Notes under the pieces: generated by a model
Told to the model about the DNA's origin: nothing
What the model saw: the letters and a program-made list of their open reading frames with translations, nothing else
The model's database searches: none
Virus record (IMG/VR): IMGVR_UViG_2713896902_000001
Strand: one strand, 5' to 3'
DNA length: 31,164 nt
From: a virus
Taxonomy: Duplodnaviria > Heunggongvirae > Uroviricota > Caudoviricetes
Made by a program: the position numbers and the translations under genes
Shown here: in pieces, positions 1 to 22,666 of the stretch
Layout of the letters: every line of letters begins with the position of its first letter
How positions within the stretch are numbered: position 1 is the first letter of the stretch

Positions 1-159
1 ATGAAAAACATTGCAGCTATAAAACGTAATAACCGCAAGATTCACGCTCGTAAGTTCCTGTCTACGCCAGAGGGAAAAGCCTGGCTAGAGCGAAAGCAAC
101 GAGAGAACGAAGAAAGAAAACTCCTTAGTGAGTTGAAATGGCTTAGAGAGGATTTCTGA
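1..159 (+). CDS. small basic ORF (52 aa), possibly complete or the C-terminal end of a gene beginning left of the window
   Basis: ATG at position 1, open frame to TGA at 157-159 (MKNIAAIKRNNRKIHARKF...KWLREDF); below the 60-aa track cutoff; no upstream context visible. Confidence 0.25.
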   Translation: MKNIAAIKRNNRKIHARKFLSTPEGKAWLERKQRENEERKLLSELKWLREDF

Positions 160-289
160 AAATCTCCAGAACGCAACAGGACGCATTCTAACGCTGTTTT
201 CATTGCTTTGTATAGGGATGTATAGGTGATGTGTGTTTAATGCGTCTGCGCGCTTGTTTTGTGCCTTATTTTGCATTTTCATAATGCAG

Positions 290-520
290 AAGAGAACACG
301 GAAAGCCTTAAAATTAATTATTGGGGTATTTAAGGGTATTTTCAGGTTATTTAAGGGTATTAAACTTGATTTAATTGATTAAAATATAAACAGATAGTTC
401 TGTATCTTATTGATTTATAAGGTTATTTTTAAATAAAGGTAAATAAAAAATAAATAGCCATAAATAGCTATAAATACATCTAAATACCTATAAATACATC
501 TAAATACCTATATCCCTTCC
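290..520. repeat. AT-rich tandem direct repeats (GGTATTTAAGGGTATT-like x2; six 10-11 bp units of TAAATA(C/G)CNA)
   Basis: Read directly: ...ataaatagccataaatagctataaatacatctaaatacctataaatacatctaaataccta...; lies 3' of the serine recombinase gene. Confidence 0.5.
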
Positions 521-608
521 CTTATGGCTAGATTGCGAGAGGTGCTTAACGCGATTTTTAGCGCCCCCCGATCTGGAAAATCCAGAATCCCCAAATATCA
601 AGGAGGCG

Positions 609-1148
609 TTACGCCTCCTCTTCTTCCTTCTTAATTCGCTGTACCGTCGAAGGAGCAACATTAAAGATCTCGGCGGTTTTACGCACTGACACGCCATCAG
701 AAAGGGCTTTCTTTATACCTTCTCTATCTACTGCCTTACCTTTACCACGCTTTGTAGGATTGACGGCTTGCGCTTCTCGTTTACGCTCTAACATCAGTTC
801 ACGTTCACACGTTGCAACTGCCGACAACATCGTAAGCATCATCTTTCCCATCGCGCTTGTAATGTCTGCAATGATCCCTTCTTTGTGAAATCGAACAATC
901 ACACCTCGATTATTAAGTTGTTCAACTAAAGCAAGGATATCTAAGGTGTTACGTCCTAAACGGTCGAGAGAGTGCACGTGTAAGGTGTCGCCTTCTCTCA
1001 GATAGGATAAACACGCCTGCAATCCTGGACGGTTAGTGTCTTTACCTGACAGCTTATCTTCAAAGACTTTATCAAGCGTTACTCCTGCAAGCTGGCGATC
1101 AGTGTTCTGATCTACAGTGCTCACACGCTTATAACCGATATTGCTCAT
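609..1148 (-). CDS. small serine recombinase (resolvase/invertase family)
   Basis: 179 aa; N-terminal MSNIGYKRVSTVDQ with catalytic-Ser context, DRLGR motif, C-terminal HTH (VSVRKTAEIFNVAPSTVQRIKK); size and layout match Hin/Tn3-resolvase-type recombinases. Confidence 0.85.
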   Translation of the reverse strand: MSNIGYKRVSTVDQNTDRQLAGVTLDKVFEDKLSGKDTNRPGLQACLSYLREGDTLHVHSLDRLGRNTLDILALVEQLNNRGVIVRFHKEGIIADITSAMGKMMLTMLSAVATCERELMLERKREAQAVNPTKRGKGKAVDREGIKKALSDGVSVRKTAEIFNVAPSTVQRIKKEEEEA

Positions 1149-1400
1149 AAAATCCTCTTAATGTATCGATTTGGCACTACTTCAATGCAAATGAGTATAT
1201 CGTATTCATTTGGTCTGTTTCAAGCCTTATGGGTACGGAATATTACACGATTTAGCTGTATTCATTTGGTATGCCTAATGGATACACAGGGGAATAGATT
1301 AAATGGTGTTCTGTTTATACAGGTTTATTTGTTAGATCAACAAGTTGGCATTTCTAAACAGATGTTTGAACGTTGCCAAATGTCTTGACAACACAAGAAA
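1149..1400. promoter_or_regulatory. candidate res-like recombinase site / control region upstream of the serine recombinase
   Basis: Direct repeat GTATTCATTTGGT twice (about 1199 and 1258) plus TGTTT..ACAG-type half-sites immediately 5' of the recombinase start; track ORFs 1161..1388(+) and 1332..1544(-) here look non-coding. Confidence 0.25.
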
Positions 1401-1419
1401 AGGGCTTGCTATGCCACGC

Positions 1420-1840
1420 ATTACACGAAATAAGGCTGTAAAAACAAAATAAATTTTAAAATTTGCACAAACAAGAAAACTCATTAAGAAACAAGCAGAA
1501 CATTTTTTAGCCAATAATTTCTGATGGTGCCCTGTAAGCCGCATTACACAAGGCTTTGCGAAAGTGATGTAAAAGTGAAGAAAGTAAGAATTGCATTTTT
1601 AAGCTACTTTTCACTGAATTTTTAGTAGGGAATTACACAGGAATAAGTTAGGGATATTCTATGATTTACACAGGGAATATAGGGGGATTATGGCACACAC
1701 ATAGAAAGACATTACACAGAGTGCTATGTGACAAATGGATGTAACGAGAGGTTACATTCAGCTATCTGAAATGCTCTCTGTAAGAAAGTTGGTAGTAACG
1801 GTAGGTCACTGTGAGCTAGGGGGTAGGTCACTGTGAACTA
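1420..1840. repeat. iteron-like direct repeats (TTACAC(A/G) x5; GGTAGGTCACTGTGA x2)
   Basis: TTACACAG-like copies near 1422, 1544, 1633, 1666, 1712; 15-bp GGTAGGTCACTGTGA at about 1800 and 1822 separated by 7 bp; no ORF of 60 aa or more on the track between 1544 and 3076. Confidence 0.45.
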
Positions 1841-1899
1841 CAATAAGACTATTAATAAAACTATATTAGATTATTAATTAGATCATAATAATAATATTC

Positions 1900-2340
1900 T
1901 TTATATATATGATCTTTTGCCTTCCGGCGTTAGCTTCACTCTCTGGCAAGCAGCCTTACTCCGCTACCTTTCGGGCTACGTTGGCTGGCCCGTTCCGCTC
2001 ACACCGAAAGCAAAGCGTTACTTTCTTCGTGTAACTATCGTTGGCGGTAACGCCCACGAAGAAATACTATTGCGCTGTGCGCAGTAAGAGTAATCACCTA
2101 ACCAATCATACTGATTGCTTATGTGTTAACTCTCTCTAACTCTTAATTACCCTCCTACATTTAATAACTCTGTTATTCTCTGTAGTCGTGTAATTACTCG
2201 AAGAGAGAGCGGCTAAAGCTCAATTACACTCTGCTTTCCTCGTGTAATTTCACTAAGCCTCAATACAATTCCACTTCCACATTCTGTAGTCGTGTAATTG
2301 TTTTCGGTGGAAAAGCCAGAGGCGACACCGAAAGAGAATT
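1900..2340. other. structured non-coding segment with repeated TCTGTAGTCGTGTAATT (x2), CGTGTAAT(T/C) variants and CACCGAAAG (x2)
   Basis: 17-bp exact direct repeat at about 2179-2195 and 2283-2299; hairpin TTCTTCGTG...CACGAAGAA near 2025-2065; GC-rich island inside AT-rich flanks. Confidence 0.35.
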
Positions 2341-2929
2341 CTGATCTTATTAATCTTATCTATCTTAGTTAATCTTCTTACTTTATCTTACTTATCTTAT
2401 CTACTTTATTATTAATAATAGCTTTATAAGCTCTCTGTGTAGCTCTATGACGCAAGAAACAGCATTCAGGAAGGGAATCACCTTAGAAAAGTGTTCTTTG
2501 CGTCATAATGTGTTTTATGAAGGATTCAGAGGTGTTTCATACCACAAGGTATAGAGGATACTTTTAATTAATTAAAAATAAGGGGTCTAAATGCTTCTCT
2601 AACAGCATTAAGCAGGGTAGGGAATGGAAACGCATTGCCTACACATATAAGCTCACTACAGGGCTTTACAGAGCGTTTTATAAAGTGACTCTCTATCTTA
2701 TATCTACCATCACCTTTTCATATACCTAACAAATACAAATTAAGCCCCTTAAATAAGCCTATGGCGAGCTAAACAGCCATTACATAAGGGAATGTATTGC
2801 TTTTATCAAAACCTCGTTAGAACGCGTTTTAGAGCGTTTTAGACAATAATGAAGAATAGCACCACACAGAAGAGCACGAATTGCTAAGACAAATTATAAC
2901 ATGCTGAAAAAGATCGATTTTTTTCGAAA

Positions 2930-2970
2930 AGGGTATTGACAAATGTTTCTTTATATGTAATAATAGGTAT
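2930..2970 (+). promoter_or_regulatory. sigma70-like promoter for the rightward operon (TTGACA -N17- TAATAA)
   Basis: gggtattgacaaatgtttctttatatgtaataatagg about 110 bp upstream of the 3076 start; a short hairpin + T-run (aagccgtcaggctt...tttttt) precedes the RBS. Confidence 0.3.
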
Positions 2971-3075
2971 TAGAGGGACAGAAAAACATTCTTCTCTAAA
3001 TAATCAAAATCAATGCACTTTGAAGCCGTCAGGCTTGCAAGGTGTTTTTTCTTTTAACTGAATAAGGAGTTTTTT

Positions 3076-3264
3076 ATGAAATGGTTTACACCGGAGCACG
3101 TCGTCTCGGCATTTAAAAAAGGTGAGTTATCTCGCCACCAAGTAGTAATGAATCGTAATATGGCAAGGAGTCGAGGCTATCCAGAGCGAGCAGCTTGCTT
3201 CAATGAAGCACTCAAGATTATTGATGAACTAAGAAAAAATGAAAAAGAATCTGAAACAGAGTAA
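3076..3264 (+). CDS. hypothetical small protein (62 aa)
   Basis: Track ORF; AAGGAG RBS 7 nt upstream; first gene after the promoter. Confidence 0.5.
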   Translation: MKWFTPEHVVSAFKKGELSRHQVVMNRNMARSRGYPERAACFNEALKIIDELRKNEKESETE

Positions 3265-3283
3265 AGAATAGAAGGAGAAAACT

Positions 3284-3454
3284 ATGAGCGAAACTACAGA
3301 AAAGAAAAGACAACCACGCACTTGCTTTCATATTCCTGATGAAGTATTTCAGGTGTTATTTAAAGAAGCCAGAAGTAGACGTATCACTGTCACAGATTAC
3401 ATTCTTGATATGTTGAAAAGAGAGGCTGAAACACTCTCAAATAAAAGCAAGTGA
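3284..3454 (+). CDS. hypothetical small protein (56 aa), possibly ribbon-helix-helix-like
   Basis: ATG at 3284 with GAAGGAG RBS; MSETTEKKRQPRTCFHIPDEVFQVLFKEARSRRITVTDYILDMLKREAETLSNKSK; below track cutoff. Confidence 0.4.
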   Translation: MSETTEKKRQPRTCFHIPDEVFQVLFKEARSRRITVTDYILDMLKREAETLSNKSK

Positions 3455-3507
3455 TTTTTATCACCATAGTAGCGCCATAGAGCGTGATTACATCAAGGAG
3501 ATTTTTA

Positions 3508-4065
3508 ATGATTAACCAACTAACTTTTACAAAACACTATGACACGTTTGATAATGTATCAAAGATTTATTCTGATAAATTCCCTCAAGGAAAAGATTTA
3601 GATCTATTACATATTGTGCTTTATTTTCGATTCCTTAGTTATCAGGAAAACAACCTTAATTGTTATGAAAGTCACGAAACATTAGCTAAGATTTTTAAGT
3701 CTTCATCGTCAACAATTAAACGTAAGATAAACGATCTTAAAGAGATGGGATTATTAGAAACATCCCCACATCCTGATCCGTATATTTCATCTTTGATTTA
3801 CAATGCTCTCCCTCTCACAGATGCACATATTACTCCCCCAGGAGAATCATCACTCTCTGATCTTTCTGAGGCAGAAGAAGCACAGGAACAACCTAAAGGC
3901 CATAAACAGCCTTCTTTTGATGTTCTTGATGATTGGGATGCGCCTTTGCCGTGGGAGACGGAAGAAACACCTGTTTCATCAAGTGAAAAGGTAGCTAATG
4001 ATAATGAGGCATATTTTTCTAAGCATTACCCAAATGTGTATGATGACTTTGATATTCCATTTTAA
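3508..4065 (+). CDS. HTH-type DNA-binding protein with acidic C-terminal tail; possible replication-initiation or regulatory protein
   Basis: Track ORF 3484..4065 (GTG); preferred start is ATG 3508 with AAGGAG RBS; winged-helix-like segment (ETLAKIFKSSSSTIKRKINDLKEMGLLE) then acidic tail; sits downstream of the iteron-rich region. Confidence 0.6.
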   Translation: MINQLTFTKHYDTFDNVSKIYSDKFPQGKDLDLLHIVLYFRFLSYQENNLNCYESHETLAKIFKSSSSTIKRKINDLKEMGLLETSPHPDPYISSLIYNALPLTDAHITPPGESSLSDLSEAEEAQEQPKGHKQPSFDVLDDWDAPLPWETEETPVSSSEKVANDNEAYFSKHYPNVYDDFDIPF

Positions 4066-4076
4066 TAAGGAGGGTT

Positions 4077-4355
4077 ATGATTCAATATTTAGTAAAAAAT
4101 CAAGTAGACAGAATTCAGTGTAATGACACAGGAAAACGCATCTACGAAACACTTGCTTACCTCTATAAAGGAAAGCCAACACCGCTAAAATATAGCGATG
4201 TGTTACACCGAGCAGGGTGCTCTGAAGATGGTTTAAAATTCTGGCTGAAACAGCTATCAAATTTCGGTGTTATAGAGATTAAAGAATTATCTTTCTCTAC
4301 ATTCAATCTCAAAAGACTAAATAGAGAAATAGACTTCATCTATTCCACTCTCTAA
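4077..4355 (+). CDS. hypothetical small protein, possible HTH regulator (92 aa)
   Basis: Track ORF; TAAGGAGGG RBS directly upstream. Confidence 0.6.
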   Translation: MIQYLVKNQVDRIQCNDTGKRIYETLAYLYKGKPTPLKYSDVLHRAGCSEDGLKFWLKQLSNFGVIEIKELSFSTFNLKRLNREIDFIYSTL

Positions 4356-4484
4356 AATCTCTCTATGTAATTAAAATATAAAAGGAAAACATTATTATGA
4401 TAGTAGCTATGTATTGGTTATTGTTCTTTCTCACGTTAGAAACATATTTCGGGGTGTTTTCCTTTAAAAGAAAAGGAAAAATAA

Positions 4485-4895
4485 ATGGCAAAAAGAAAAA
4501 ACAACGTTGTTAAGAAGATCGGTGATTCAGCTTCTCTTCTAAGTAAACCTAAATCTATTCTAAGACGTAAAGACTTTAAAGAGCTAGTTACGCTCACCAA
4601 GCATAATAGCGCCCCTGGCGAATGGAAAACAGAGATCATAGAACATTCTCCCTCTGTGCCTTGTGGAGATGAATTTAACGCCTTACAAGAAATCTTATCT
4701 TCAACACCTGGCGTATTCTGGAAGCCTAGAAAAAGAAAAGAGTATATCGTTGATAGCTCTGATTTACGCAAATACCAGATTTTAGGATTTGAAGACTATA
4801 ACCACTACGTCGGTTATCTCGCCACCAATGGCCTAAATAATTTAGTTCCTGAATTCCAAATTCTAGATAATGCTGATCACTATGGAGACTTTTAA
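4485..4895 (+). CDS. hypothetical protein with basic N-terminus (136 aa); small-terminase-like or DNA-binding role is a guess
   Basis: Track ORF; N-terminal MAKRKNNVVKKIG...KSILRRK is strongly basic; antisense track ORF 4436..4771 judged spurious. Confidence 0.6.
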   Translation: MAKRKNNVVKKIGDSASLLSKPKSILRRKDFKELVTLTKHNSAPGEWKTEIIEHSPSVPCGDEFNALQEILSSTPGVFWKPRKRKEYIVDSSDLRKYQILGFEDYNHYVGYLATNGLNNLVPEFQILDNADHYGDF

Positions 4896-4896
4896 T

Positions 4897-5232
4897 ATGA
4901 ACAACACGTATGATACAATTTATTCACTAATTAATTATTATGAGGATGATTACCTCCTGCCTTTAAACCGTGCTGAACTTGAAGCATATAAAGAAAACAC
5001 ACCATCGGCACTAAATGAGGCGTTTAAACACTGGGATTTAGCTGTGAATGCCTTTGAGCACCTCTCTAAGCGTGTAGAGATGCTCTGCAAGCGCGAAAAC
5101 GCATATCTGACAGCCTCTCAGGTATGGGATCTATCAAACTGGATAGAAGATATCGAAGCTGATGTTCGCTATGTAGGAGACGGACTTGTTGAACTAGCTC
5201 AACGCTTAGGCGCTACTATCACAGAAGAATAA
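4897..5232 (+). CDS. hypothetical acidic protein (111 aa)
   Basis: Track ORF 4870..5232; start placed at ATG 4897 just after the upstream stop (same frame as the track ORF). Confidence 0.55.
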   Translation: MNNTYDTIYSLINYYEDDYLLPLNRAELEAYKENTPSALNEAFKHWDLAVNAFEHLSKRVEMLCKRENAYLTASQVWDLSNWIEDIEADVRYVGDGLVELAQRLGATITEE

Positions 5233-5254
5233 AAAAAGCAACAAAAAAGTTGTA

Positions 5255-5560
5255 AAATATCTTGACATTTCATATATTGTATGTTAATATAATTATATGG
5301 GGTGATTATTTTTCCTTTATTGGTTCGATATTAAAAATTCTTCTTGTCGTTAAAGGGGAGTAAAATCTCCGCTCCCCGCTTCTCCTCCTTAAGTAAATAC
5401 TGTGTCATTATTACCTCTTTTTTCCTTTGTTATGCATACATCTTGGAGTGTGCATAACATAGGGTAATTACAAAGGCGGCTTTAAATGCTGCCTTTTATT
5501 TTGCCCGTTATGCAACTTAAAAGTTGTATTTCTTACTTTAAACAAGGTAACAAGGTTTAT
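5255..5560 (+). promoter_or_regulatory. structured leader with promoter-like TTGACA-N17-TAATAT and several hairpins upstream of the structural-type genes
   Basis: cttgacatttcatatattgtatgttaatat; hairpins GGGGAGtaaaatctccgCTCCCC, GTTATGCATACA...TGTGCATAAC, AAAGGCGGCtttaaatGCTGCCTTT followed by a T-run. Confidence 0.3.
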
Positions 5561-5564
5561 ATAA

Positions 5565-5777
5565 ATGTTGTTTTTAAACGATAAAGAGCAAATCATCAAG
5601 TATCGAGATGAAATGCTGCGAATTACTCCACAAATTACCGAAATGGTAGCTAAATACGCTGGGTGTTCTGTCGAAGAAGTAGAAAGATGTGTTGAAAAAT
5701 ATTTTTCTCCTTCTTCTCCGTCTACACCTTCCCTTAATGAATTAATCAAATTAAAAGCTAAGGAGATTACTAAATGA
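5565..5777 (+). CDS. hypothetical small protein (70 aa)
   Basis: Track ORF; weak RBS; stop overlaps the start of the next gene. Confidence 0.45.
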   Translation: MLFLNDKEQIIKYRDEMLRITPQITEMVAKYAGCSVEEVERCVEKYFSPSSPSTPSLNELIKLKAKEITK

Positions 5778-6136
5778 TTATTGATTTAGACACTCTGTTT
5801 CCAGTTCGAAAGACTTTCACAGATATTGTAAGTTATTGTACTGATCCGTTTGCCTCTGTAGAAAGCAAGGTTTTTGCTTCTCTTCCTGCTGATGTTGAGT
5901 GCGGAGACTTGATCACCAGCACGGGCGCTAAATATGAATCAGGAGATGATGTCTATGTTGTTATGAGTGAGTTTGTAACGGCTGGAGACAACAAGCCTGT
6001 AGATATTTTACGTAGCAATGCTGGGCTTGTATGCATCAAAGCTGATGCCCTGAATGCTGTAAGTGAAGCAGCAAAAACAGCATTAATTAAAAAAGGCTTC
6101 CAGCTTGAAGGCTTTAATACGGTTTTCACTTCTTAA
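5774..6136 (+). CDS. hypothetical protein (120 aa), possibly a head-decoration-like protein
   Basis: Track ORF; AAGGAG RBS; size, composition and position immediately 5' of the capsid-like gene recall lambda D-type decoration proteins; assignment by context only. Confidence 0.55.
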   Translation: MIIDLDTLFPVRKTFTDIVSYCTDPFASVESKVFASLPADVECGDLITSTGAKYESGDDVYVVMSEFVTAGDNKPVDILRSNAGLVCIKADALNAVSEAAKTALIKKGFQLEGFNTVFTS

Positions 6137-6154
6137 TAAAAGGAATAATAATAA

Positions 6155-7183
6155 ATGATTCTAGGTAATGATTACGTTGATTTAGCTCCGCTTTTCCAGG
6201 CTCATAGCACTAGAAATTATCTGCTTTCTACTCTCGACTTCACTGATCCGGTGGGCGTTAGTTCTCATAAAGTAGCTGTTTCCCAGCTTGTCGAAAGCAA
6301 CGAATCTCTCTTTAACAAAGAAACCTCTCGTTTCTCTTCTGAACACAATGTTACTAAGCGAGAACAAGGTAAAGAATGGCTGATTGAAATCCCGTATTTT
6401 CTTCGTGAGGATGTGATTCGTCCTTCTGATGTTCAAGGCAAGCGTAAGCCTGGCACTGATTTTCAGGAAACACTCACTGATATTTATGCTGAGTATGTTG
6501 CTAAACACCACGTAGCGTATCAGCGTACAAAAGAGAGCGTATTGGCTGCTTCTTTGTTCTCTGGCAAAACTTACACACCGAAAACTGATGATGTGTTAAT
6601 TGAGTGGGGCAAGCTGTTTAACGTATCAGCTATGAAAGCCACTGTGAACGCTTCCAGCACTGACACCACGAAGATTTTTAAAGAATTTGATCAGATTGCT
6701 ACTAACATTTTTGAAATCACACAAAGCCAGGCGTCAGCGGTAGAAAGAATTGTTGTTTTCTGTAAGCCGGAAGCCTTCTCTGCAATTCGATTCTCTGCGG
6801 GTATGGCAAACGCATTCCAGTATGTAAGCCCACTGGAAGAGGGGAATGTTGTGTACCAGCGTCGTGACCTGCTGCCAGGAGTGACAGCGTTCACTATTCC
6901 AGGAACTAACATTGATGTTGTTAAACTGGTAGATCCGCTACACCTTGCACATATGACCGCTGACGCTGTAGCTGTTCCGAAGTTTGCTAAAGGCTCTAAT
7001 GTATATCAGAACATCTACGGGGCTGCTTCCAGCACCTTTGAACTGATTAATGCCGCTCCTGCTGAGGTGTACAGCTATAGCTATGAATCTTCTCGTGGTG
7101 ATGCTGTTAACGTTGTTACAGAGAATAGCCAGATGGTTGTAAACCACGGTGTAGGCTTCTCCGTTCAAATCACTGTTAAATAA
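6155..7183 (+). CDS. putative major capsid-like structural protein (342 aa)
   Basis: Track ORF; Ala/Ser/Thr/Val-rich, Cys-poor composition; followed by a strong intrinsic terminator; preceded by a decoration-like gene; about the size of lambda E-type capsid proteins; no search run. Confidence 0.6.
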   Translation: MILGNDYVDLAPLFQAHSTRNYLLSTLDFTDPVGVSSHKVAVSQLVESNESLFNKETSRFSSEHNVTKREQGKEWLIEIPYFLREDVIRPSDVQGKRKPGTDFQETLTDIYAEYVAKHHVAYQRTKESVLAASLFSGKTYTPKTDDVLIEWGKLFNVSAMKATVNASSTDTTKIFKEFDQIATNIFEITQSQASAVERIVVFCKPEAFSAIRFSAGMANAFQYVSPLEEGNVVYQRRDLLPGVTAFTIPGTNIDVVKLVDPLHLAHMTADAVAVPKFAKGSNVYQNIYGAASSTFELINAAPAEVYSYSYESSRGDAVNVVTENSQMVVNHGVGFSVQITVK

Positions 7184-7196
7184 TATTTAACGTGTA

Positions 7197-7236
7197 ATAG
7201 AGGCGTGGCGTGTATTCACGCTTCGCCTTTTTTTAT
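7197..7236 (+). terminator. Rho-independent terminator after the capsid-like gene
   Basis: gaggcgtggcgtgtattcacgcttcgcc stem followed by tttttttatttatttttt. Confidence 0.6.
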
Positions 7237-7268
7237 TTATTTTTTAAATTTTGAGAGGTGATTAAAAT

Positions 7269-7472
7269 ATGGAAGTGATTCTGAAATCAAAAAATGGTGT
7301 ACACGTACATTTAGATGCTAATGATTCTAGAGGCTTGTTAAATCTGAAATATCTATGTTCTCTCTTAGATGTGCCATATGAAGGAGTAAAAGCCCGTATG
7401 TTCAGATTAAACGAGAGTATTGATCAGGCTCTACACCATTTCTTAAGCAAAGAAGGTGGTAAAAATGATTAA
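7269..7472 (+). CDS. hypothetical small protein (67 aa)
   Basis: Track ORF; GAGAGGTGA RBS. Confidence 0.45.
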   Translation: MEVILKSKNGVHVHLDANDSRGLLNLKYLCSLLDVPYEGVKARMFRLNESIDQALHHFLSKEGGKND

Positions 7473-7486
7473 TAAGGGGATTTTAA

Positions 7487-9331
7487 ATGTTAGAAATTAA
7501 CACTTCTAAAATTAAGAACACAGTTACATTTAGTGTAGATAAAGACAGCTTGAAAAAAGCGAAAGACTCTATTACAGGCTTAAAGGAATTCGCAGAGAAC
7601 ATCAAGCCAGCTAAATTAAGGTTTGATAATGTCACTAAAGGCTATAAGAAAGCACAAAACGAAGTAGACAAGATTGCTCAACAGAAAGCTAAAACAGAAA
7701 AGCAGAATCAAAGAGCACAAGCTGCCGCAGCAAGAGCACAGGCAAGGCAACAGGCACAAATAGCAGCACGTAAAGAGAAAGCAGAATTAAAACTTCTCGA
7801 TGTGTCAAGCTCTATCAGTGCAATGCACCGCCTCTCTGTAGCGGAACAATACAAAGCTATTGCACAGGCTAGAGAGATAGCAAAACAATATGAGCAAGGG
7901 GCTATCTCGCTTGCACGTATGAATAGCCAAATGAAACGCTTACAACAACAACAACGTAAGATTAATGGCAACAGAAAAGCTCAATTTGCCCCCGTTAAAG
8001 GAGGATCAGGGAATTCCGCCACTATGGGCGCTCTGTTATTTGGAGGCGCTACAGCGGCGGCTGGCGTGATGGCTGTAAGCAAAGCCTCTGATTTTGTTAC
8101 TAGCAGCTTCGCTAACGCAGAGACGCAAGGGGAGCTAATTCAACGGGCCAAGCTGGGCGGTGTAGACGTTAACCAGATGTATAATATTACAGAATGGGCG
8201 TATAGAAACGGCGTTGACTCTATGATGGGTGATCAAGGTGCTAGGAAATACCTGGATCAGATGAAAGATGTTAGGGAACGTGCCGCAAAATCCTATAGTG
8301 AAGCTGAATTAGTGAAAGATAAGAAAACCGGAAAATCAGGGAAATGGAAAGGCGGTGATAACGCTATTAATGAACTTCTAAACATCGGTGTTATTAACAA
8401 AAGCGACCTTAAAAAATTTGCTGATAATCCAGCCGGATTAATTTCTAAGGCTGTTAATGGAATGATGAAAAAAGGGTTTTCAGACTCCCAAATTGGACAA
8501 CGTTTAGAAGACCTGGGCGATGATTTGATGCTTACGTCAAAATATTGGCAACGTTCCGTTAAAGATGTACAAGAAAGTATTAATCAGCAAAAAGCCTCTG
8601 GAAAATGGCTAACAGAAACACAGCAAGAATCTATCGTTAAATTCAGAGAACTAAACAGACAGCTTTCACAGCTTTCTGATGCAAGGCAAGTAGCATTCGT
8701 AGACGGCTTTATGAAATCTCTCGATCCAAAAGTAACGGAAGAGTTTATGAAAAACCTTTCTAATCTCACTCCGTATTTTACGAAGCTGGGAGAAGCTGCA
8801 GGAAGTCTCTTTGAGGCCATTATGAAGATTGTAAACTGGTTTAATCGTAATGATGATAAGACAGATGCTATTCAGAAAAATTTAGGTGATGCACCGCCAT
8901 TAAGCAATGATGGAATGAAACAGCATCTTTCTAATCTCGTTCCTGATCAATATAAAGGCGCTGGCACTGCAACAACTACACCTGATAATAGTCATTCTCT
9001 CTTTAACACGATTAAGGGATTGCTTTTCGATGATAATGCTTCTTCTGTATCAGATGTAAAAATGTCAGTCAGCGAAGCACCGATAACCAATCTCAAACAG
9101 GGTGCTTTAAATAATCTTGCAATGACAACTCCGGCTTATAATTTATCTCCTGTGTTTAATCTGAATCCAACGTTTGAAGTGGTAACAGAGGTTCCTCTTA
9201 CTATTAATTCTGACACATCCAGATTAAGCGATTATGTGGATTTTACAGCGAGAGCAAGTCGGGATAGCTTCTTGAAATCATTAACATTAACCAGCTTATC
9301 AGGACAATCTAACGGCGGGGACCCGCCATAA
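7487..9331 (+). CDS. large coiled-coil protein with a Gly/Ala-rich hydrophobic segment (614 aa); virion-internal, tape-measure-like or ejection-like protein
   Basis: Track ORF; AAGGGGA RBS; N-terminal Ala/Gln/Lys-rich heptad-like region (QKAKTEKQNQRAQAAAARAQARQQAQIAARKEK), hydrophobic GGSGNSATMGALLFGGATAAAGVMAV; antisense Cys-rich ORF 7708..7971 is a mirror artefact of the Ala/Gln codons. Confidence 0.7.
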   Translation: MLEINTSKIKNTVTFSVDKDSLKKAKDSITGLKEFAENIKPAKLRFDNVTKGYKKAQNEVDKIAQQKAKTEKQNQRAQAAAARAQARQQAQIAARKEKAELKLLDVSSSISAMHRLSVAEQYKAIAQAREIAKQYEQGAISLARMNSQMKRLQQQQRKINGNRKAQFAPVKGGSGNSATMGALLFGGATAAAGVMAVSKASDFVTSSFANAETQGELIQRAKLGGVDVNQMYNITEWAYRNGVDSMMGDQGARKYLDQMKDVRERAAKSYSEAELVKDKKTGKSGKWKGGDNAINELLNIGVINKSDLKKFADNPAGLISKAVNGMMKKGFSDSQIGQRLEDLGDDLMLTSKYWQRSVKDVQESINQQKASGKWLTETQQESIVKFRELNRQLSQLSDARQVAFVDGFMKSLDPKVTEEFMKNLSNLTPYFTKLGEAAGSLFEAIMKIVNWFNRNDDKTDAIQKNLGDAPPLSNDGMKQHLSNLVPDQYKGAGTATTTPDNSHSLFNTIKGLLFDDNASSVSDVKMSVSEAPITNLKQGALNNLAMTTPAYNLSPVFNLNPTFEVVTEVPLTINSDTSRLSDYVDFTARASRDSFLKSLTLTSLSGQSNGGDPP

Positions 9332-9352
9332 CATTACAAGGAAATTATTATT

Positions 9353-10066
9353 ATGGCGACCGCCGGGATTTTAACCATACGTGCAGCAAATACTCCAGAA
9401 CAACACGTTCAGGCTGTTTACAAAGCAGAACAAGATATAAACTCTACAAAAAACGAAAATAGCAAAGCTAATAAAACAAAAGGAGAGAACGGATTTGCTA
9501 TTGTTACCAGTGGACTGGCATCTTCTGGTAATGATGTTTATGAAAATTATATGGCACTGGCCTTTGATAGTGTTGACGATGTGAACGTGAGACGTTCGGC
9601 AGATGTCACAAGCTACCCCGTAGAAAATGGTGCTACTGTGTCTGATCACGTTCAAATTAAAAACAATAAGTTCTCTCTTAAAGGGCGTATCTCTGAAACA
9701 CCGATTAAAAGCGATCCTGGCTTGTTAAAGAGTGCAGGGGTGAACGGGAACAGAAGATCATTGGCTATTGATTATCTGAATCAGATTATGGACAGTAGAC
9801 AGCCTTTTCTTCTTGTTACAGAAAATAAAACTTTTGAGAACGTTGTTTTAACAGGCATCGAATACACAGAAGAGGCAAGCGAATCCCTGGTATTTGATCT
9901 TAGCTTTGAGCAGATCAGGCTCGTTTCGTATGGCACTGTAAACACTGTAGCTATCAAAACACAGCCATCTAAGAACATCGGGGCTAATATGAAAAAACGT
10001 GTTAACACTGAAAAACCAAGTAGTGAAGGTGAAGACACTATTACTCCTGCCTTTAAACAGGAATAG
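9353..10066 (+). CDS. hypothetical protein (237 aa), possibly structural
   Basis: Track ORF; AAGGA RBS; last gene of the rightward operon. Confidence 0.65.
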   Translation: MATAGILTIRAANTPEQHVQAVYKAEQDINSTKNENSKANKTKGENGFAIVTSGLASSGNDVYENYMALAFDSVDDVNVRRSADVTSYPVENGATVSDHVQIKNNKFSLKGRISETPIKSDPGLLKSAGVNGNRRSLAIDYLNQIMDSRQPFLLVTENKTFENVVLTGIEYTEEASESLVFDLSFEQIRLVSYGTVNTVAIKTQPSKNIGANMKKRVNTEKPSSEGEDTITPAFKQE

Positions 10067-10104
10067 CCGTAAATGCCTCTAAAACGCTCTGTAACGATGT
10101 AATT

Positions 10105-10140
10105 ATAAAAGAGGCTACCAACTATGTTGAATCCTCTTTA
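10105..10140. terminator. hairpin between convergent genes (bidirectional terminator candidate)
   Basis: TAAAAGAGGctaccaactatgttgaatCCTCTTTA between the 9353..10066 gene and the minus-strand integrase. Confidence 0.4.
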
Positions 10141-10146
10141 TTGCGT

Positions 10147-11481
10147 CTATGACGTTGTTTTACGCCTTAAATTTGATTTTTTATTGATTGATAAGCCTTT
10201 CTCTATTTCAGGGTAGCGTAGAAGCTCAATATATTTTTTAAGCTCTACTGGAGAAGCTGCATTCTTGCTATATGTGCGGAATGTTTCTGTATTGCCGCGT
10301 GTATGGCCCAGGAGAAGGGCGATCCTGTCTTCTGGAATTTGATTTCGATCAAGAAGCTGTGCTACTCCGTGTCTCAGAGAATGAAACACTTTCCTTTCTG
10401 TTCCCTTTTCCCCTAAAGCCTTTCGTTTAGCTCTTGTAAATCTCTGCGTGTGCCACGTGGAACGTTTACCATCAGCACGCTCTGTAATGCTGGCGTGATA
10501 GAACAAAAAGCCATTATGAGGCTTTTCACGCAGCGACAACACCAACGGAGTGATAAGGCTATGCACAGGAACAAGACGTGCCGCAGCTTTCGTTTTTCCC
10601 TGTGTGATTTCAAAACACAGCACACCTTCGATCTCTTTCACATCGTCTATTGTGAGACTTGCTATCTCATTGATCCGCATACCTGTATAAGCACCGATAA
10701 GACACAAAGCCATCATTTCTTTGTTTTCTGCTGAATCACCGGAAAATACTTGCAACACCTGCAATAGCTCTTTGTTAGAAAATGCCTCATAGCTCTCTCT
10801 ACTTTGTGCCACATCAAGCCTATGCCCTCGCCAGGGGGAGAGCGCCCTTTCTGGCGCATCGTGGTAACGTGATGAAGCTAACTCCCATAGCTGGGCCATT
10901 GGGCTGATATAATTTGCAATTGATTGTTGTGAAAGGGTTTTTTGCATGTGTTCTATCCAGCCTGTAACAGTGGTGCGGCTTACATCTTGCAATGCAATAT
11001 CAGGCTTTTTACGGTAGGAGAGAAACATCTCTACCGCTTTTCTTGCCTTAGCTAAAGTGGCTGGCTTCTTCTTCGTGCTGTTAATTGTCAGGTAGATTTC
11101 AAGAATTTTAAGCAATGACGGACACGAAGACGCTGTATCTTGCATTCTGGTAGCTGTTTTGGCGTATTTAGCCTTACTGCGTAACAGTTCCAGCGTGTTC
11201 TCTATTGTGCTGTTTACAGGAGCGACACTCTCGCGTAAGCAATGGTATTCATCTGCAATCTGATCACGCTTTCTACGTGCAACACGAAGGTTACTTGTAT
11301 GCAGACTCCTGACAAACGTCCTTTTTCCTTCAAAAAAGGGCTGCATATACACAGGCAGCGTGATCCTTAAATAGTAGTTACCGTAAGAATCACAGATTAT
11401 GTATTGATTGGGCTTGTATCTCATAAACTCCCCGGCTAAAGTGTCGGAGCGTTTGTAATGTGAAAATTGATTGTAACGCAT
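10147..11481 (-). CDS. int: tyrosine recombinase / phage-type integrase (444 aa)
   Basis: C-terminal catalytic signature: R in GMRINEI, HSLRHG (H-x-x-R), LLGH, Y in TFRTYSK; N-terminal arm-binding-like region. Confidence 0.85.
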   Translation of the reverse strand: MRYNQFSHYKRSDTLAGEFMRYKPNQYIICDSYGNYYLRITLPVYMQPFFEGKRTFVRSLHTSNLRVARRKRDQIADEYHCLRESVAPVNSTIENTLELLRSKAKYAKTATRMQDTASSCPSLLKILEIYLTINSTKKKPATLAKARKAVEMFLSYRKKPDIALQDVSRTTVTGWIEHMQKTLSQQSIANYISPMAQLWELASSRYHDAPERALSPWRGHRLDVAQSRESYEAFSNKELLQVLQVFSGDSAENKEMMALCLIGAYTGMRINEIASLTIDDVKEIEGVLCFEITQGKTKAAARLVPVHSLITPLVLSLREKPHNGFLFYHASITERADGKRSTWHTQRFTRAKRKALGEKGTERKVFHSLRHGVAQLLDRNQIPEDRIALLLGHTRGNTETFRTYSKNAASPVELKKYIELLRYPEIEKGLSINKKSNLRRKTTS

Positions 11482-11751
11482 AGAAAATGATAATTTTTTC
11501 TATAAGATTCAATCAATTAGTAATGGTCGTAGGTGATGGCATTAACACGAGATTAATCGAGTGTTTTACTCCTATTATCGGCACCATTCAAACATCTCCC
11601 CAAGTCTACTAAAGTCTTTCAAAACCCCTTATAATCCACGTATTAAAGCCCCGTTCGTCTTTTGACGTCTACTAAAGTCCCTCAAAATCTACGGTCAGAT
11701 GGGGGTACTTATGGGGGTATTTGCTGTTCGGTTTAGTGGAGGTACCCCCAA
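11482..11751. promoter_or_regulatory. shared control region between divergent integrase genes with 20-bp direct repeats
   Basis: GTCTACTAAAGTC(T/C)(T/C)TCAAAA twice (about 11605 and 11660); GGGGGTACttatgggggtatttgctgttcggtttagtggagGTACCCCC inverted repeat just before the int start; partly duplicated near 30794-31035. Confidence 0.4.
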
Positions 11752-12966
11752 GTGAAACTCAATGCCCGTCAAATAGACACAGCCAAGCCAAAAGAGAAGG
11801 CTTACAAGCTGGCCGATGGTGGCGGTTTGTATCTCTTGGTAAAACCTAATGGAGGTAAATACTGGCGACTTAAATATCGTGTAGCTGGTAAAGAGAAGCT
11901 ATTGGCACTAGGTGTGTATCCTGAGGTTACTCTAGCCGATGCTCGGGCAAAACGTGAAGATGCGAAAAGAGGTATCGCTGGTGGTATCGATCCGATGGAA
12001 GCGAAACGAGAGGAAAAGATTGCCCGGGAAACGCAGTTAAACAACACCTTCAAAGATATTGCCCTTGAGTGGCACAGCAGCAAATTAAAAAAATGGTCTG
12101 CTGGTTATGCTTCAGACATCCTCGAAGCCTTCAACAAAGATGTGTTCCCTTACATTGGCAAAAAACCAATCGCCGAAATCAAACCACTTGAACTTCTGAA
12201 TGTGCTGCGGCGCATCGAGGGGCGCGGTGCGACAGAAAAAGCCAAAAAAGTGAGGCAGCGGTGCGGGGAAGTTTTCCGCTATGCAATAGTCACTGGTCGC
12301 GCAGAGTATAACCCTGCACCAGACCTTACTAGCGCGATGCAAGGCCATGAATCTAATCATTACCCTTTCCTTACGACCAAAGAATTACCTGATTTTTTCA
12401 AGGCATTGTCCAGTTACTCAGGAAGCGCATTGGTTGTTATGGCGGCTCGTCTACTGATTATCACCGGCTTGCGAACTGGCGAACTACGTGGCGCATTATG
12501 GGATGAAATTGATTTCAACAAGGCTATATGGGAGATACCCGCTTCACGTATGAAAATGCGGCGGCCTCATATTGTGCCATTGTCTGAGCAGGCTCTTTCG
12601 CTTATTGGGAAGATTAGAGAAATAACAGGCAATTACCCTCTTATGTTTCCCGGGCGCAATGATCCAAGGAAAACAATGAGTGAGGCCAGCATAAACCAAG
12701 TGTTTAAGCGCATTGGCTACGCTGGACGTGTAACTGGTCATGGGTTCCGGCACACTATGAGTACGATTTTGCATGAGCAGGGCTATAACACTGCGTGGAT
12801 AGAAACACAGCTCGCTCACGTTGATAAGAACTCAATTCGTGGCACATACAACCATGCGCAATATCTGGATGGAAGGCGGGAGATGCTTCAATGGTATGCC
12901 GACTATATGGATGCGCTGGAGAAGGAGGAGAACGTTGTTCATGGTTCGTTTGGGAAACGAGCTTGA
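11752..12966 (+). CDS. int: P4-type tyrosine integrase (404 aa)
   Basis: GTG start with GGAGGT RBS; N-terminal arm-binding domain motif GGGLYLLVKPNGGKYWRLKYR; C-terminal catalytic residues (GLRTGEL, HGFRHT, Y in RGTYNH). Confidence 0.9.
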   Translation: MKLNARQIDTAKPKEKAYKLADGGGLYLLVKPNGGKYWRLKYRVAGKEKLLALGVYPEVTLADARAKREDAKRGIAGGIDPMEAKREEKIARETQLNNTFKDIALEWHSSKLKKWSAGYASDILEAFNKDVFPYIGKKPIAEIKPLELLNVLRRIEGRGATEKAKKVRQRCGEVFRYAIVTGRAEYNPAPDLTSAMQGHESNHYPFLTTKELPDFFKALSSYSGSALVVMAARLLIITGLRTGELRGALWDEIDFNKAIWEIPASRMKMRRPHIVPLSEQALSLIGKIREITGNYPLMFPGRNDPRKTMSEASINQVFKRIGYAGRVTGHGFRHTMSTILHEQGYNTAWIETQLAHVDKNSIRGTYNHAQYLDGRREMLQWYADYMDALEKEENVVHGSFGKRA

Positions 12967-13100
12967 CTGTATGAATAGACAGTGTCAAGCAATGGTAGTA
13001 GACTTATGTAGACGAACAAAGAATAGGCTATGTCTAGGCTGATCCCCGAAAACCCGTACACCCCTACGGGCTGGCATAGCCGTCAGAATTAGGGGCGCGG
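12967..13100. other. nested hairpin structures downstream of int (terminator or structured RNA/att-like element)
   Basis: GCTTGACtgtatgaatagacagtGTCAAGC, then GGCTATG...CCCGTAcacccctACGGG...CATAGCC nested stems. Confidence 0.3.
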
Positions 13101-13108
13101 GGTGGCGT

Positions 13109-13990
13109 ATGGTGAGAGCCAAAAAACAAGATTTAGCATGGTTTGATATTAATAATTATGAATTTTTAAATGATTTAACCTTGCCGGACTTGATTCAAGA
13201 ATTAGAGTGGCGTGATTTTTTATTGCGTCATGCAAAAGATGACACTGCTATATTCAAAGAAGAGTACGATATAAAATATGAAAGAATTTTTTCGGGCGAT
13301 CCTAACCTAACCATTCTCAATGAAGAAGAGGAAGAGGTTGAAGAATTTATTCGCAAAGTAAATGATGAAGCCCCATCATTAAGAAATGAGTACGATGATC
13401 TTCCCTCATTATCTTCAGCTATGGGGGTTAGTCCAGTAACATTTTCAGAGCTGGCTATGTACTCTTTCTCATCGATAGATCAAGGCTTTTTTAAAAGAGA
13501 CGAAGAGGATTGCTACCTCAAGGCAAACGCTATGCTTGCGAGTGTTACTGGAAACCTAAGTAATTGTTCCCCTAACATCATACTCGTTTCTATAGATTTA
13601 GATGACGCCACTGATGACGAAATTATTACCAGCCTGACTCACCTTCTACCTCTATGGCGAAAAGAGTTAAAAGTACCAGAGAGAGAGCATGTCGCTCAGA
13701 AAAGGATTGGATTAAAGACCCTCCAGAAGTTGATATCTAATAGAGTGATACCTATTGTTGATCTGCTGATTTGGGGTGAGAAGTCAGGTAAGGAAGTGAG
13801 CAATCCGATGATTTCTGCCTTGGTTTTTAGTGATGATCCGAAAGATACGCAGGCTATTAAGGAATCAATAAAGCCTTTTGCACTTGAATCCATAAGCGAG
13901 AGATACACCCGCTTGCTTCAGCTTTATGTAAACAAAGACAGAGAAATGAGCTTGATAAAAATATCTGATTTAATGAGTAGAGATTTATAG
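13109..13990 (+). CDS. hypothetical protein (293 aa), AT-rich cargo gene between int and alpA
   Basis: Track ORF; visibly lower GC than flanking int and alpA; acidic runs (NEEEEEVEEF, DLDDATDDEI); no recognisable catalytic motif by eye. Confidence 0.7.
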   Translation: MVRAKKQDLAWFDINNYEFLNDLTLPDLIQELEWRDFLLRHAKDDTAIFKEEYDIKYERIFSGDPNLTILNEEEEEVEEFIRKVNDEAPSLRNEYDDLPSLSSAMGVSPVTFSELAMYSFSSIDQGFFKRDEEDCYLKANAMLASVTGNLSNCSPNIILVSIDLDDATDDEIITSLTHLLPLWRKELKVPEREHVAQKRIGLKTLQKLISNRVIPIVDLLIWGEKSGKEVSNPMISALVFSDDPKDTQAIKESIKPFALESISERYTRLLQLYVNKDREMSLIKISDLMSRDL

Positions 13991-14034
13991 CAAGCAAAAT
14001 CCTACGTAAACGTTTTAAGTAAATTTCGCGATTT

Positions 14035-14069
14035 CCGCTTTGAATACGCTACTGTGTATTTCAAAGCGG
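14035..14069. promoter_or_regulatory. perfect 10-bp inverted repeat CCGCTTTGAA / TTCAAAGCGG (operator or terminator) between the cargo gene and alpA
   Basis: Read directly; not followed by a clear T-run, so operator favoured over terminator. Confidence 0.3.
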
Positions 14070-14187
14070 ATAATCTTCTCAAAAAAATATTTTATTTTTA
14101 TCCGCTATCACCCACTCACCTGTTTGTTTAATCTCCTTTCTGTCTACTGATGTCCATTAAAGAAGATGACAGAATATAGGAGTAAAC

Positions 14188-14385
14188 ATGTCTCAATCAT
14201 TTATTCGTCTTTCTGAGGTTCAACGCCGTACTGGTTACAGCAAAGCGTGGATTTATCGGCTCATCAAAGAACAGCGATTCCCTCAATCTGTAAAGATTGG
14301 AAGCCGATCAATTGCGTTTATTGAAAGTGAAATTGAAGAATGGATTAATCAGCGCATCGCTGAGTCGCGTGGCGAGGTAGCGTAA
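14188..14385 (+). CDS. alpA: AlpA/Vis-family phage transcriptional regulator (65 aa)
   Basis: HTH pattern LSEVQRRTGYSKAWIYRLIKEQRFP...IESEIEEWINQR typical of AlpA-family proteins; position after int as in P4-like and PICI-like islands. Confidence 0.85.
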   Translation: MSQSFIRLSEVQRRTGYSKAWIYRLIKEQRFPQSVKIGSRSIAFIESEIEEWINQRIAESRGEVA

Positions 14386-14816
14386 TGAATAAGAAAAACC
14401 GCCCATTACAGGCGGCTAATTCAGATATTCGCGTATCTGATGTTACGCCCCTTACAAAATCCCTTCAAGCACCAAAGCGCACACCGAAAAAGCATCGTGC
14501 CAGAGTCTATATGCTGCGTACTGGTATAGAGGGATGGACAGAAAATGACATTCTTCGCTACTGCCGTCTGTCTTCTGGTCGTAACTATGCAACAGAGTTA
14601 GAACGCCAGCTTGGAATCACTCTGGAGCGTATCGACGAAAAGAATCCTGATGGTATCGGAACACACCTTCGCTACCGTTTCTCCTGCCGTGGTGATGTTC
14701 TGAAAGTGATCACTCATGTTAACCATCTTGCGAACATAAATGATCACAACGGACTTTCTCAGCAGGAAATTGCCGACATTCTGAAACTCTACCCGGACGC
14801 GTTTAACGCCGCCTAA
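14385..14816 (+). CDS. hypothetical protein (143 aa)
   Basis: Track ORF; ATG overlaps the alpA stop (translational coupling). Confidence 0.6.
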   Translation: MNKKNRPLQAANSDIRVSDVTPLTKSLQAPKRTPKKHRARVYMLRTGIEGWTENDILRYCRLSSGRNYATELERQLGITLERIDEKNPDGIGTHLRYRFSCRGDVLKVITHVNHLANINDHNGLSQQEIADILKLYPDAFNAA

Positions 14817-14828
14817 CGGAGACTGAAA

Positions 14829-15662: not shown

Positions 15663-15837
15663 GCCGACAGGAACACCACAACCTCAAAAACGCTACAAAG
15701 ATGCCCACGGAGCACTCGTTACTGTCGAAAGCGTGTCTCACAACCGAGTGACGTTTTATCGCGACGGGTATCAATCGCCATGCGTACAACCGCTGGCGCG
15801 CTTCATGAAGGAGTTCGCGGAGGTTAACAAATGCTAA
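15655..15837 (+). CDS. hypothetical small protein (60 aa)
   Basis: ATG 15655 with GGAGG RBS overlapping the upstream stop; internal start of track ORF 15568..15837. Confidence 0.4.
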   Translation: MFKPTGTPQPQKRYKDAHGALVTVESVSHNRVTFYRDGYQSPCVQPLARFMKEFAEVNKC

Positions 15838-17780: not shown

Positions 17781-17792
17781 CATAACGTCATT

Positions 17793-18158: not shown

Positions 18159-18168
18159 GGATGGAACC

Positions 18169-21617: not shown

Positions 21618-21641
21618 GCTACTTCATGTGCGTAGAAAAGG

Positions 21642-21753: not shown

Positions 21754-21850
21754 ACAATGTGACTGAATTGATGTGCACAACACCTGGCTGGCATTAGAGA
21801 GTGTTTTACGAAATCTGAACACCACATCAACTGGTTTCAGTGGGAGATTG

Positions 21851-22650: not shown

Positions 22651-22666
22651 AAATGGATGGCACCGC

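Follow-up and report, generated by a model that had tools for sequence, protein, structure and literature searches.

The left part of a 31,164-nucleotide (nt) window, the whole of the viral record IMGVR_UViG_2713896902_000001 of IMG/VR (Caudoviricetes), is occupied by an element of ~12.2 kb inserted at the tRNA gene thrW, which is probably a helper-dependent phage satellite with members of the Stephanstirmvirinae (~145 kb) as its likely helpers. It keeps exactly four recognisable virion genes, coding for a head decoration protein, a capsid protein, a tail tape measure and a tail-tube initiator. We favour this reading because the element combines flanking att repeats, an integrase, a replication module, a family of relatives spread across genera, and virion genes that point to a single phage group.

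The four virion genes belong to an uninterrupted rightward array of twelve open reading frames (ORFs) at positions 3076-10066. A first-pass annotation, made from the sequence without database searches, had described here an operon of small ORFs followed by ORFs of 120, 342 and 614 amino acids (aa), with a strong terminator after the 342-aa gene, and all of this exists as described, the terminator corresponding to a hairpin at 7200-7224. The virion genes are as follows:

5774-6136, plus strand: head decoration protein of 120 aa with a gpD/SHP-like fold (AlphaFold2 model, Foldseek).
6155-7183, plus strand: major capsid protein of 342 aa, lambda gpE/HK97-fold family (Pfam Phage_cap_E, phrog_29).
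7487-9331, plus strand: tail tape measure homologue of 614 aa (phrog_16051), with a Gly/Ala-rich hydrophobic segment near residues 170-200.
9353-10066, plus strand: Dit-like tail-tube initiator/baseplate protein of 237 aa (Pfam Dit_like, PF21821).

The 342-aa protein, initially called capsid-like, matches Phage_cap_E (PF03864) over its full length (residues 15-341; 49.7 bits for a cut-off of 22.9; 3.7e-13), and the best match of its family profile in the PDB is gp124 of phage phi92 (E 2e-19, residues 2-341 against 4-332). A curated threshold and a solved capsid thus both place it among the lambda-E/HK97-type major capsid proteins. It shares 22% identity over its full length with the capsid protein of phage JohannJBalmer.

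The 120-aa protein has no match to any sequence family in Pfam, PHROGs or NCBIfam, and compared directly with the phage decoration protein, by sequence or by profile, it shows no significant match. We name it from its predicted fold and its capsid-adjacent gene, which lies directly upstream of the capsid gene as in JohannJBalmer. An exhaustive profile search recovered 20 representatives in 1.84 billion proteins, and the AlphaFold2 model built on this deeper alignment reached a pLDDT of 83 and a pTM of 0.75; a model from close homologues only was unusable (pLDDT 53). The seven best Foldseek matches of this model in the PDB are chains from the capsid reconstructions of Bas63, Sf14 and PhiTE, followed by SHP of phage 21, and one matching chain (9ncf) is named as a head stabilization/decoration protein. 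TM-scores range from 0.47 to 0.61 in the PDB and reach 0.62 when BFVD is included, with modest E-values (1.8e-4 to 1e-2), and head decoration proteins of BFVD match at E 1.8e-4. Moreover, the most distant members of the 120-aa family match phrog_2680 ('head decoration'), the PHROG to which the decoration protein of Justusliebigvirus belongs. The supposition that this protein is decoration-like was therefore borne out by a gpD/SHP-like fold.

The first-pass annotation had also regarded the array as a minimal structural gene set, devoid of tail genes, of a capsid-remodelling satellite or a very small virus-like element. An integrative, helper-dependent element is indeed the best supported reading, but two tail genes are present. 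The 614-aa protein, described as a coiled-coil protein with a hydrophobic Gly-rich segment, does have this segment, but it is a specific tape-measure homologue rather than a generic coiled-coil or pilot protein: its search against PHROGs profiles returned phrog_16051 ('tail length tape measure') with E 1.6e-53 over residues 127-611, and BLASTP aligns it with the 659-aa tape measure of JohannJBalmer (E 6.5e-33), with which it shares 54% identity in residues 1-66 and 28% in residues 173-611. A tblastn search with this protein retrieves only 134 phage records, nearly all of Stephanstirmvirinae type and of ~142-152 kb, and homology together with synteny, its gene lying upstream of the initiator gene, places it among tape measures of that type. 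The 237-aa protein, which had gone unmentioned although its gene lies within the array, is a Dit-like protein by its match to PF21821 (E 2.6e-29; 102.3 bits for a cut-off of 24.2). Justusliebigvirus and Phapecoctavirus phages have a 'tail tube initiator' with which it shares 58-60% identity (60% for JohannJBalmer), and its gene, which is missing from some members of the family, contains 79 nt that are 91% identical to phage DNA.

The remainder of a virion gene set is missing. The ORFs of the element are all too short to encode a portal, large terminase, sheath or hub protein, those left unassigned being of at most 136 aa, and no portal, terminase, protease, sheath or tube families were found by hidden Markov model (HMM) scans of the element ORFs, in agreement with the earlier remark that terminase, portal and protease are lacking from these ~7 kb. 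The element also encodes no helicase, primase or polymerase, and no relaxase or conjugation families turned up in the Pfam, NCBIfam and PADLOC scans. Such an incomplete virion gene set is one general attribute of satellites.

All four virion genes point to the Stephanstirmvirinae, which are virulent myoviruses of ~142-152 kb (phi92, phAPEC8). The gene order is the same in JohannJBalmer, with the decoration and capsid genes adjacent and, further on, a small gene followed by the tape measure and the initiator; in the Stephanstirmvirinae module, however, ~30 more morphogenesis genes lie between and around these four, and the element is without them. The tape measures of the E. coli and Klebsiella elements retrieve nearly the same 134 phage records, and the tape measures and initiators of various members of the family match essentially only Stephanstirmvirinae-type phages, the initiators of other members reaching 75-79% identity to phage proteins. 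By contrast, the element's capsid and decoration proteins have diverged far more from those of the phages (~22% identity) and behave as a vertically inherited core of the family. They represent an old and separate lineage, whereas the tail-core genes look recently exchanged.

Traces of contact are also visible at the DNA level, where the element shares three patches of 42-79 nt with Stephanstirmvirinae phages at 91-100% identity (two of them at 91-93%). One patch at 3467-3515 (~45 nt), which covers the ribosome-binding site and start codon of a replication-initiator-like (rep-like) gene, is 96-100% identical to the sequence in front of the homologous gene in phages Mt1B1_P17 and BI-EHEC, and the coding sequence next to it has diverged; this points either to recent recombination or to a regulatory site that the element and the phages have in common. 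The GC content of the element (38.9%) is close to that of the phage (37.7%), and the host flanks have 52-59%. The 30 kb structural region of Stephanstirmvirinae that we examined holds no integrase, and the papers that we retrieved call these phages lytic.

The element is a discrete mobile unit with its own integration functions, the other general attribute of satellites, as it carries an integrase and is bounded by 20-bp att repeats. The features at its two ends are the following:

609-1148, minus strand: serine recombinase of the resolvase/invertase type (Pfam Resolvase, E 9.5e-34), in the variable accessory end.
10147-11481, minus strand: tyrosine integrase (Pfam Phage_integrase, DUF6538, Phage_int_SAM_5), at the same position in every family member.
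11568-11587, plus strand: attR, a 20-bp direct repeat of the 3' end of the tRNA-Thr gene thrW, ACTCCTATTATCGGCACCAT, matched in strain FORC_042.

The context of the window is the proA-thrW locus of the E. coli chromosome, directly downstream, and strain FORC_042 is 99.9% identical to it. Comparison with this strain puts attL within thrW, ~610 bp to the left of the window start, and attR sits just past the leftward integrase gene, so that the element extends over ~12.2 kb from thrW to the repeat at 11568-11587. The same pair of repeats is spaced by 12.08-12.44 kb in five metagenome contigs. The window contains no tRNA genes, and no Rfam families were found in positions 1-12000.

We considered whether the element corresponds to known residents of this locus and rejected both candidates: Sp1/Sp2 of strain Sakai, as Sp1 is a lambdoid remnant with different genes, and CP4-6 of K-12, whose IntF is only 24% identical to the element integrase. 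In RefSeq the element is annotated with capsid and baseplate genes amid hypothetical proteins. The thrW-proximal end is an accessory zone. About half of the examined E. coli copies lack the serine resolvase gene; relatives in Klebsiella and Serratia have a short tyrosine recombinase in its place, and the Klebsiella relative also has a Dam methylase there.

A search for homologous elements revealed a conserved integrative family across genera of Enterobacterales. Capsid homologues occur in this order only, at 38-97% identity and always with 341-348 aa, and the element itself is present at no less than 80% coverage in 273 of 5,426 complete E. coli genomes (at least 5%). Relatives in Klebsiella, Serratia, Citrobacter, Kluyvera, Buttiauxella and other genera have the same gene order, which runs from a recombinase through small regulators, the rep-like gene, three small genes of unknown function, a 70-aa gene, decoration and capsid, to a 65-aa helix-turn-helix (HTH)-like gene, a tape measure of ~615-640 aa, an optional initiator and the integrase. 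This order of 11-12 genes, the gene lengths and the ~12 kb size are shared in at least six genera at 38-76% capsid identity, and members in other genera use different integrases and insertion sites.

Among 13 E. coli copies, the only disrupted gene is the tape measure, which is split in two of them, and the ratio of nonsynonymous to synonymous substitution rates (dN/dS) ranges from 0.01 to 0.24 across the element genes, at dS of about 0.06-0.25. Median dN/dS is 0.084 for the capsid, 0.114 for the tape measure, 0.057 for the initiator, 0.17 for the decoration protein and 0.014 for a 67-aa gene (dS 0.14-0.26), the last value being the lowest of all element genes. The genes of the element are under strong purifying selection and, since they are intact in nearly all 13 copies at such dN/dS, the array at 3076-10066 is not a chance pattern of ORFs. 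Non-coding regions are as conserved as coding regions among the copies. The tape-measure/initiator modules differ among copies of the same capsid lineage, and a swapped tail module together with swapped replication and regulator alleles (see below) is typical of elements that track different helpers.

The twelve ORFs form two blocks, an early one (3076-5232) behind a near-consensus sigma-70 promoter (2936-2964), and a structural one (5565-10066) preceded by a second promoter (5262-5290) and a terminator-like hairpin (5472-5496). The remaining genes and signals of the region are the following:

1242-2298, no strand: non-coding region with iteron-like repeats (a cluster of ATTACAC/GTGTAAT), a candidate origin or other cis-acting site.
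2936-2964, plus strand: sigma-70-type promoter, TTGACA-17-AATAAT with an upstream TG, 11 of 12 matches, as judged by consensus match only.
3076-3454, plus strand: two small proteins of 62 and 56 aa, conserved in Klebsiella at 60-66% identity.
3508-4065, plus strand: winged-HTH replication-initiator-like protein of 185 aa (phrog_270, Pfam HTH_36), with its ATG at 3508.
4077-5232, plus strand: three proteins of 92, 136 and 120 aa, conserved across genera (dN/dS 0.13-0.23).
5262-5506, plus strand: promoter-leader-terminator unit, with TTGACA-17-TAATAT and a TG, a structured leader of ~210 nt and a terminator at 5472-5496.
5565-5777, plus strand: conserved protein of 70 aa at the head of the structural block (dN/dS 0.24), a position kept family-wide.
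7200-7224, plus strand: intrinsic terminator-like hairpin after the capsid gene, with a nine-pair stem followed by a T run.
7269-7472, plus strand: HTH-like protein of 67 aa directly upstream of the tape measure, a position kept in all family members.

The rep-like protein matches phrog_270 ('replication initiation protein') at 1.2e-8 and is ~32% identical to double winged-HTH proteins of Stephanstirmvirinae phages. The 56-aa protein resembles ribbon-helix-helix regulators, and its gene, like the rep-like one, comes in unrelated versions even where the structural genes of the copies agree at mostly 93-100% (down to 88% for the tape measure in two copies). For the rep-like gene, whose alleles have been swapped, identity between E. 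coli copies varies from 31 to 99%, with 31-80% for the unrelated versions, and the 56-aa gene exists as two alleles (46% versus 96-100% identity). Such an exchange suggests a module that switches specificity of replication or immunity.

In the ORF-poor stretch of 1.9 kb to the left of the operon, the motif ATTACAC and its complement are found in both orientations. There are 14 occurrences in the whole window for 3.8 expected by chance, nine of them within 1242-2298, along with two exact 17-nt repeats (TCTGTAGTCGTGTAATT) at 2179 and 2283. Nucleotide identity among copies over 1242-2298 is mostly 93-99%, falling to ~90% at 1701-1900. This iteron-like cluster and the winged-HTH gene look like an origin/initiator pair.

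Two other observations concern the same non-coding region. A GC-rich island at 1917-2087, within otherwise AT-rich sequence, is 98-99% conserved among the copies; its fold is modestly better than that of shuffled sequences for the minus strand only (z = -2.75, as opposed to -1.63 for the plus strand), and it has no Rfam match. At 2799-2844, 46 nt are 91.5% identical to an unannotated region of the Klebsiella phage KPN4 (109 kb), and overlap a local direct repeat (2810-2841, containing GCGTTTTAGAGCGTTTTA).

The leader of the 5262-5506 unit folds with a minimum free energy of -61.7 kcal/mol (z = -5.3), a value matched by none of 200 shuffled sequences. The unit is ~97-98% identical among E. coli copies, at least as conserved as the capsid gene, has no match in Rfam, and may serve as a termination switch or give rise to a small RNA. 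The 67-aa family shows weak matches to Sigma70_r4_2 in four of nine members, and other weak HTH matches in single members; for this protein such weak signals were all that Pfam, PHROGs, NCBIfam, PADLOC and PDB profile searches returned. We asked whether it is the phage gene found at the same position upstream of the tape measure, and comparison showed the two to be unrelated. The same searches gave nothing informative for the 62-, 56-, 92-, 136- and 70-aa proteins and for the 120-aa protein encoded within 4077-5232.

With regard to known satellites, the closest analogy, for the possession of an own capsid protein, is with the capsid-forming phage-inducible chromosomal islands (cf-PICIs), which are also integrative, encode an HK97-fold capsid protein where other satellites just remodel that of the helper, and depend on a helper for other parts of the virion. 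According to Alqurainy et al. (2023), as summarised in PMC10690885, cf-PICIs code for the whole set of head and packaging proteins, with a protease, portal, head-tail connectors, the small and large terminase subunits (TerS, TerL) and HNH, and for no tail genes. The head genes of the element are instead only capsid and decoration, to which two tail-core genes are added, and it lacks the AlpA and primase-replicase module. No portal, protease, connector, TerS/TerL or HNH families and no ORFs of suitable size were found in it, which sets it apart from cf-PICIs. As regards classical PICIs, the integrase is present, and AlpA, primase/replicase and TerS/Rpp/Ppi were not found by HMM scans, a result to be read with the limit that small uncharacterised ORFs could still hide such functions.

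The element also resembles P4, a satellite of 11.6 kb that integrates in a tRNA gene and exploits a myovirus helper. P4 packs its 11.6 kb into a T=4 shell, which the length of the element would also fit. However, P4 has no capsid protein and resizes the P2 capsid by the external scaffold Sid, and none of Sid, Psu, Delta and the alpha primase-helicase, which P4 carries, was found by HMM scans of the left element; a DUF927/Toprim primase-helicase occurs only in the neighbouring element (see below). Moreover, P2 helpers are temperate, whereas the candidate helpers of the element are virulent.

In this last respect the element is closer to the PLE islands of Vibrio cholerae, which parasitise the large virulent myovirus ICP1; the capsid proteins of ICP1 and of the candidate helpers are of one broad lineage (PMC12846349). 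PLE shrink the capsids of their helper, the same outcome that we infer for the element, but they do so with the helper coat and the TcaP scaffold and use a large serine recombinase, whereas the element integrates by a tyrosine integrase and encodes a capsid and a decoration protein itself. The comparison with PLE was made on integrase type and capsid strategy only; PLE are not known to have counterparts of the tape-measure and initiator genes that the element carries. The Streptomyces phage satellites MulchRoom and MiniFlayer also combine virulent helpers with an own capsid protein, and are in other respects the reverse of the element: they encode terminase subunits, portal, scaffold and head-tail adaptor and no replication genes (PMC10690885), whereas the element has no portal or terminase, and has an initiator-like gene and tail-core genes.

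A second and unrelated element is located at 11752-28684, and the two stand in tandem, since the attR copy also serves the second as its site of attachment. It starts with a P4-type integrase (11752-12966) and encodes DUF6387, AntA and Ash proteins and a 919-aa primase-helicase with Zn-ribbon, Toprim and DUF927 domains. A P22-type ejection set follows, made of a DUF2824 protein (22667-23128), a gp7 homologue (23122-23799), a gp20-like injectosome translocase (23799-25118) and, in the position of gp16, a 908-aa protein with an SLT domain (25109-27835). No capsid, portal or tail genes were found among its ORFs that were scanned, and it looks like a second type of satellite with its own DNA-delivery proteins. 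The earlier proposal that both elements of the window carry proteins of the virion-internal type is thus confirmed by these gp7/gp20/gp16-type ejection proteins.

The left element may remodel capsids, and its gene content suggests how a satellite of this kind might operate. Upon infection by a helper, it would excise and replicate; having no genes for a helicase, primase or polymerase, it would borrow the replisome of the helper or the host. Shells sized for ~12 kb would be built from its capsid and decoration proteins on the portal, scaffold and protease of the helper, and the helper terminase would package its DNA into them. Alternatively, the capsid protein of the element may co-assemble with the helper coat and change its curvature, because the divergence of the two (~22% identity) is in the range of that between gp23 and gp24 of T4. 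The tape measure of the element, with or without the initiator, would nucleate helper-made tails or enter them, so that the protein which particles carrying the element inject ahead of the DNA, for its delivery to the next cell, would be encoded by the element. The diversion of portals, terminase and tail cores would lower helper yield and cause interference. Finally, the 5262-5506 unit, which recalls the termination-based immunity known in P4, and the small HTH proteins would constitute a likely switch that silences the structural genes until a helper arrives.

Several points weigh against a helper-dependent satellite of these phages. Excision, replication, packaging and transfer are presumed from circumstantial signs, namely homology, shared DNA patches and a GC content matching one phage group, and neither a small terminase nor a cos/pac site nor a helper-sensing repressor was identified in the element. 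None of ~24 whole metagenome contigs is circular or terminally redundant; many of them measure 12.5-14.5 kb, show no terminal overlap and end just outside the att repeats. All matches in IMG/VR bear identifiers in the style of isolate genomes, and we read them as prophage calls rather than virome particles. With only ~22% identity between its capsid protein and that of the putative helper, co-assembly with the portal and scaffold cannot be taken for granted, and the actual helper may be a phage not yet sampled. The non-coding region 1150-3075 has only a 46-nt match to KPN4 when compared with phages, and at 109 kb KPN4 is much smaller than the candidate helpers of 142-152 kb. Nor is a tape measure of its own a gene that a satellite would obviously need. 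Lastly, we found no description of satellites of Stephanstirmvirinae, or of satellites with a capsid and a tape measure, in the open-access papers and preprints searched, and any claim that the family is undescribed is weak and provisional.

Part of these data would also suit an integrative anti-phage island that is never packaged, in which divergent capsid, tape-measure and initiator proteins act as decoys and poison the assembly of Stephanstirmvirinae. The structural proteins are homologous to those of one virulent phage group yet diverged from them, there is no sign of packaging in the IMG/VR matches or the metagenome contigs, and purifying selection fits equally well; interference with tail assembly by satellite- and prophage-encoded systems has moreover been documented (PMC11364771). 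We nonetheless hold such an island to be unlikely. A pure decoy does not account well for the constant size of ~12 kb and the replication module, and the spread over genera and integration sites, with no gene for conjugation or mobilisation, is hard to explain without transfer in particles. That a decoration protein comes with the capsid protein, and matches it, speaks for a working shell more than for one poisoning subunit, and no significant PADLOC matches were obtained for the small ORFs, the rep-like protein and the resolvase, the capsid, tape-measure, initiator and integrase proteins having been left out of that scan. Interference and transfer as a satellite are, besides, not mutually exclusive, and P4, PICIs and PLE both interfere and transfer.

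We give still less credit to a decayed temperate myovirus prophage that would have retained the decoration, capsid, tape-measure and initiator genes. Capsid and baseplate genes listed among hypotheticals in RefSeq could suggest such a remnant, and the thrW hotspot also holds degraded prophages (Sp1 in Sakai, CP4-6 in K-12). The element is, however, neither of these two; its gene order, gene lengths and ~12 kb size recur in at least six genera, its genes are intact and under purifying selection, where a remnant would show pseudogenes, truncated genes, a gene content that varies between copies and relaxed selection, its non-coding regions are conserved like the coding ones, no truncated structural genes lie between those that were kept, and the related phages are virulent, as judged from the integrase-free 30 kb region and their description as lytic. 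Barely credible, finally, is a very small autonomous virus-like entity that builds particles without a helper. It could draw on its own capsid, decoration, initiator-like protein and integrase, but an HK97-type capsid requires a portal and a terminase for DNA packaging and no ORF is large enough for either, and a tape measure and an initiator are useless without the tube, sheath and baseplate, which are absent.

If the left element is indeed a helper-dependent satellite, it would exemplify a new division of labour, in which the satellite provides the shell and the tail core and the helper provides the portal, terminase, sheath and baseplate. It is even possible, although we advance this only tentatively, that it represents the first family of satellites to rebuild both ends of the virion of its helper, a virulent myovirus of 145 kb, with its own capsid and decoration proteins for 12 kb particles and its own tape measure, often along with an initiator, so that the protein entering the cell before the DNA would come from the satellite. 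Were this true, it would, together with the ejection proteins of the neighbouring element, hint at a general rule whereby satellites carry DNA-delivery proteins matched to the type of their helper. Satellite finders keyed to markers of P4, PICI, cf-PICI and PLE would be expected to miss such a family. There are also practical implications, as the Stephanstirmvirinae are virulent phages of broad host range that are often proposed for therapy: with such a satellite resident in no less than 5% of complete E. coli genomes, as well as in Klebsiella, Citrobacter and Enterobacter, therapy phages could suffer a loss of yield and could become vehicles for gene transfer. The family would, moreover, offer a tractable E. 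coli system in which to study how a capsid protein sets capsid size and what role a tape measure plays for the DNA that follows it.

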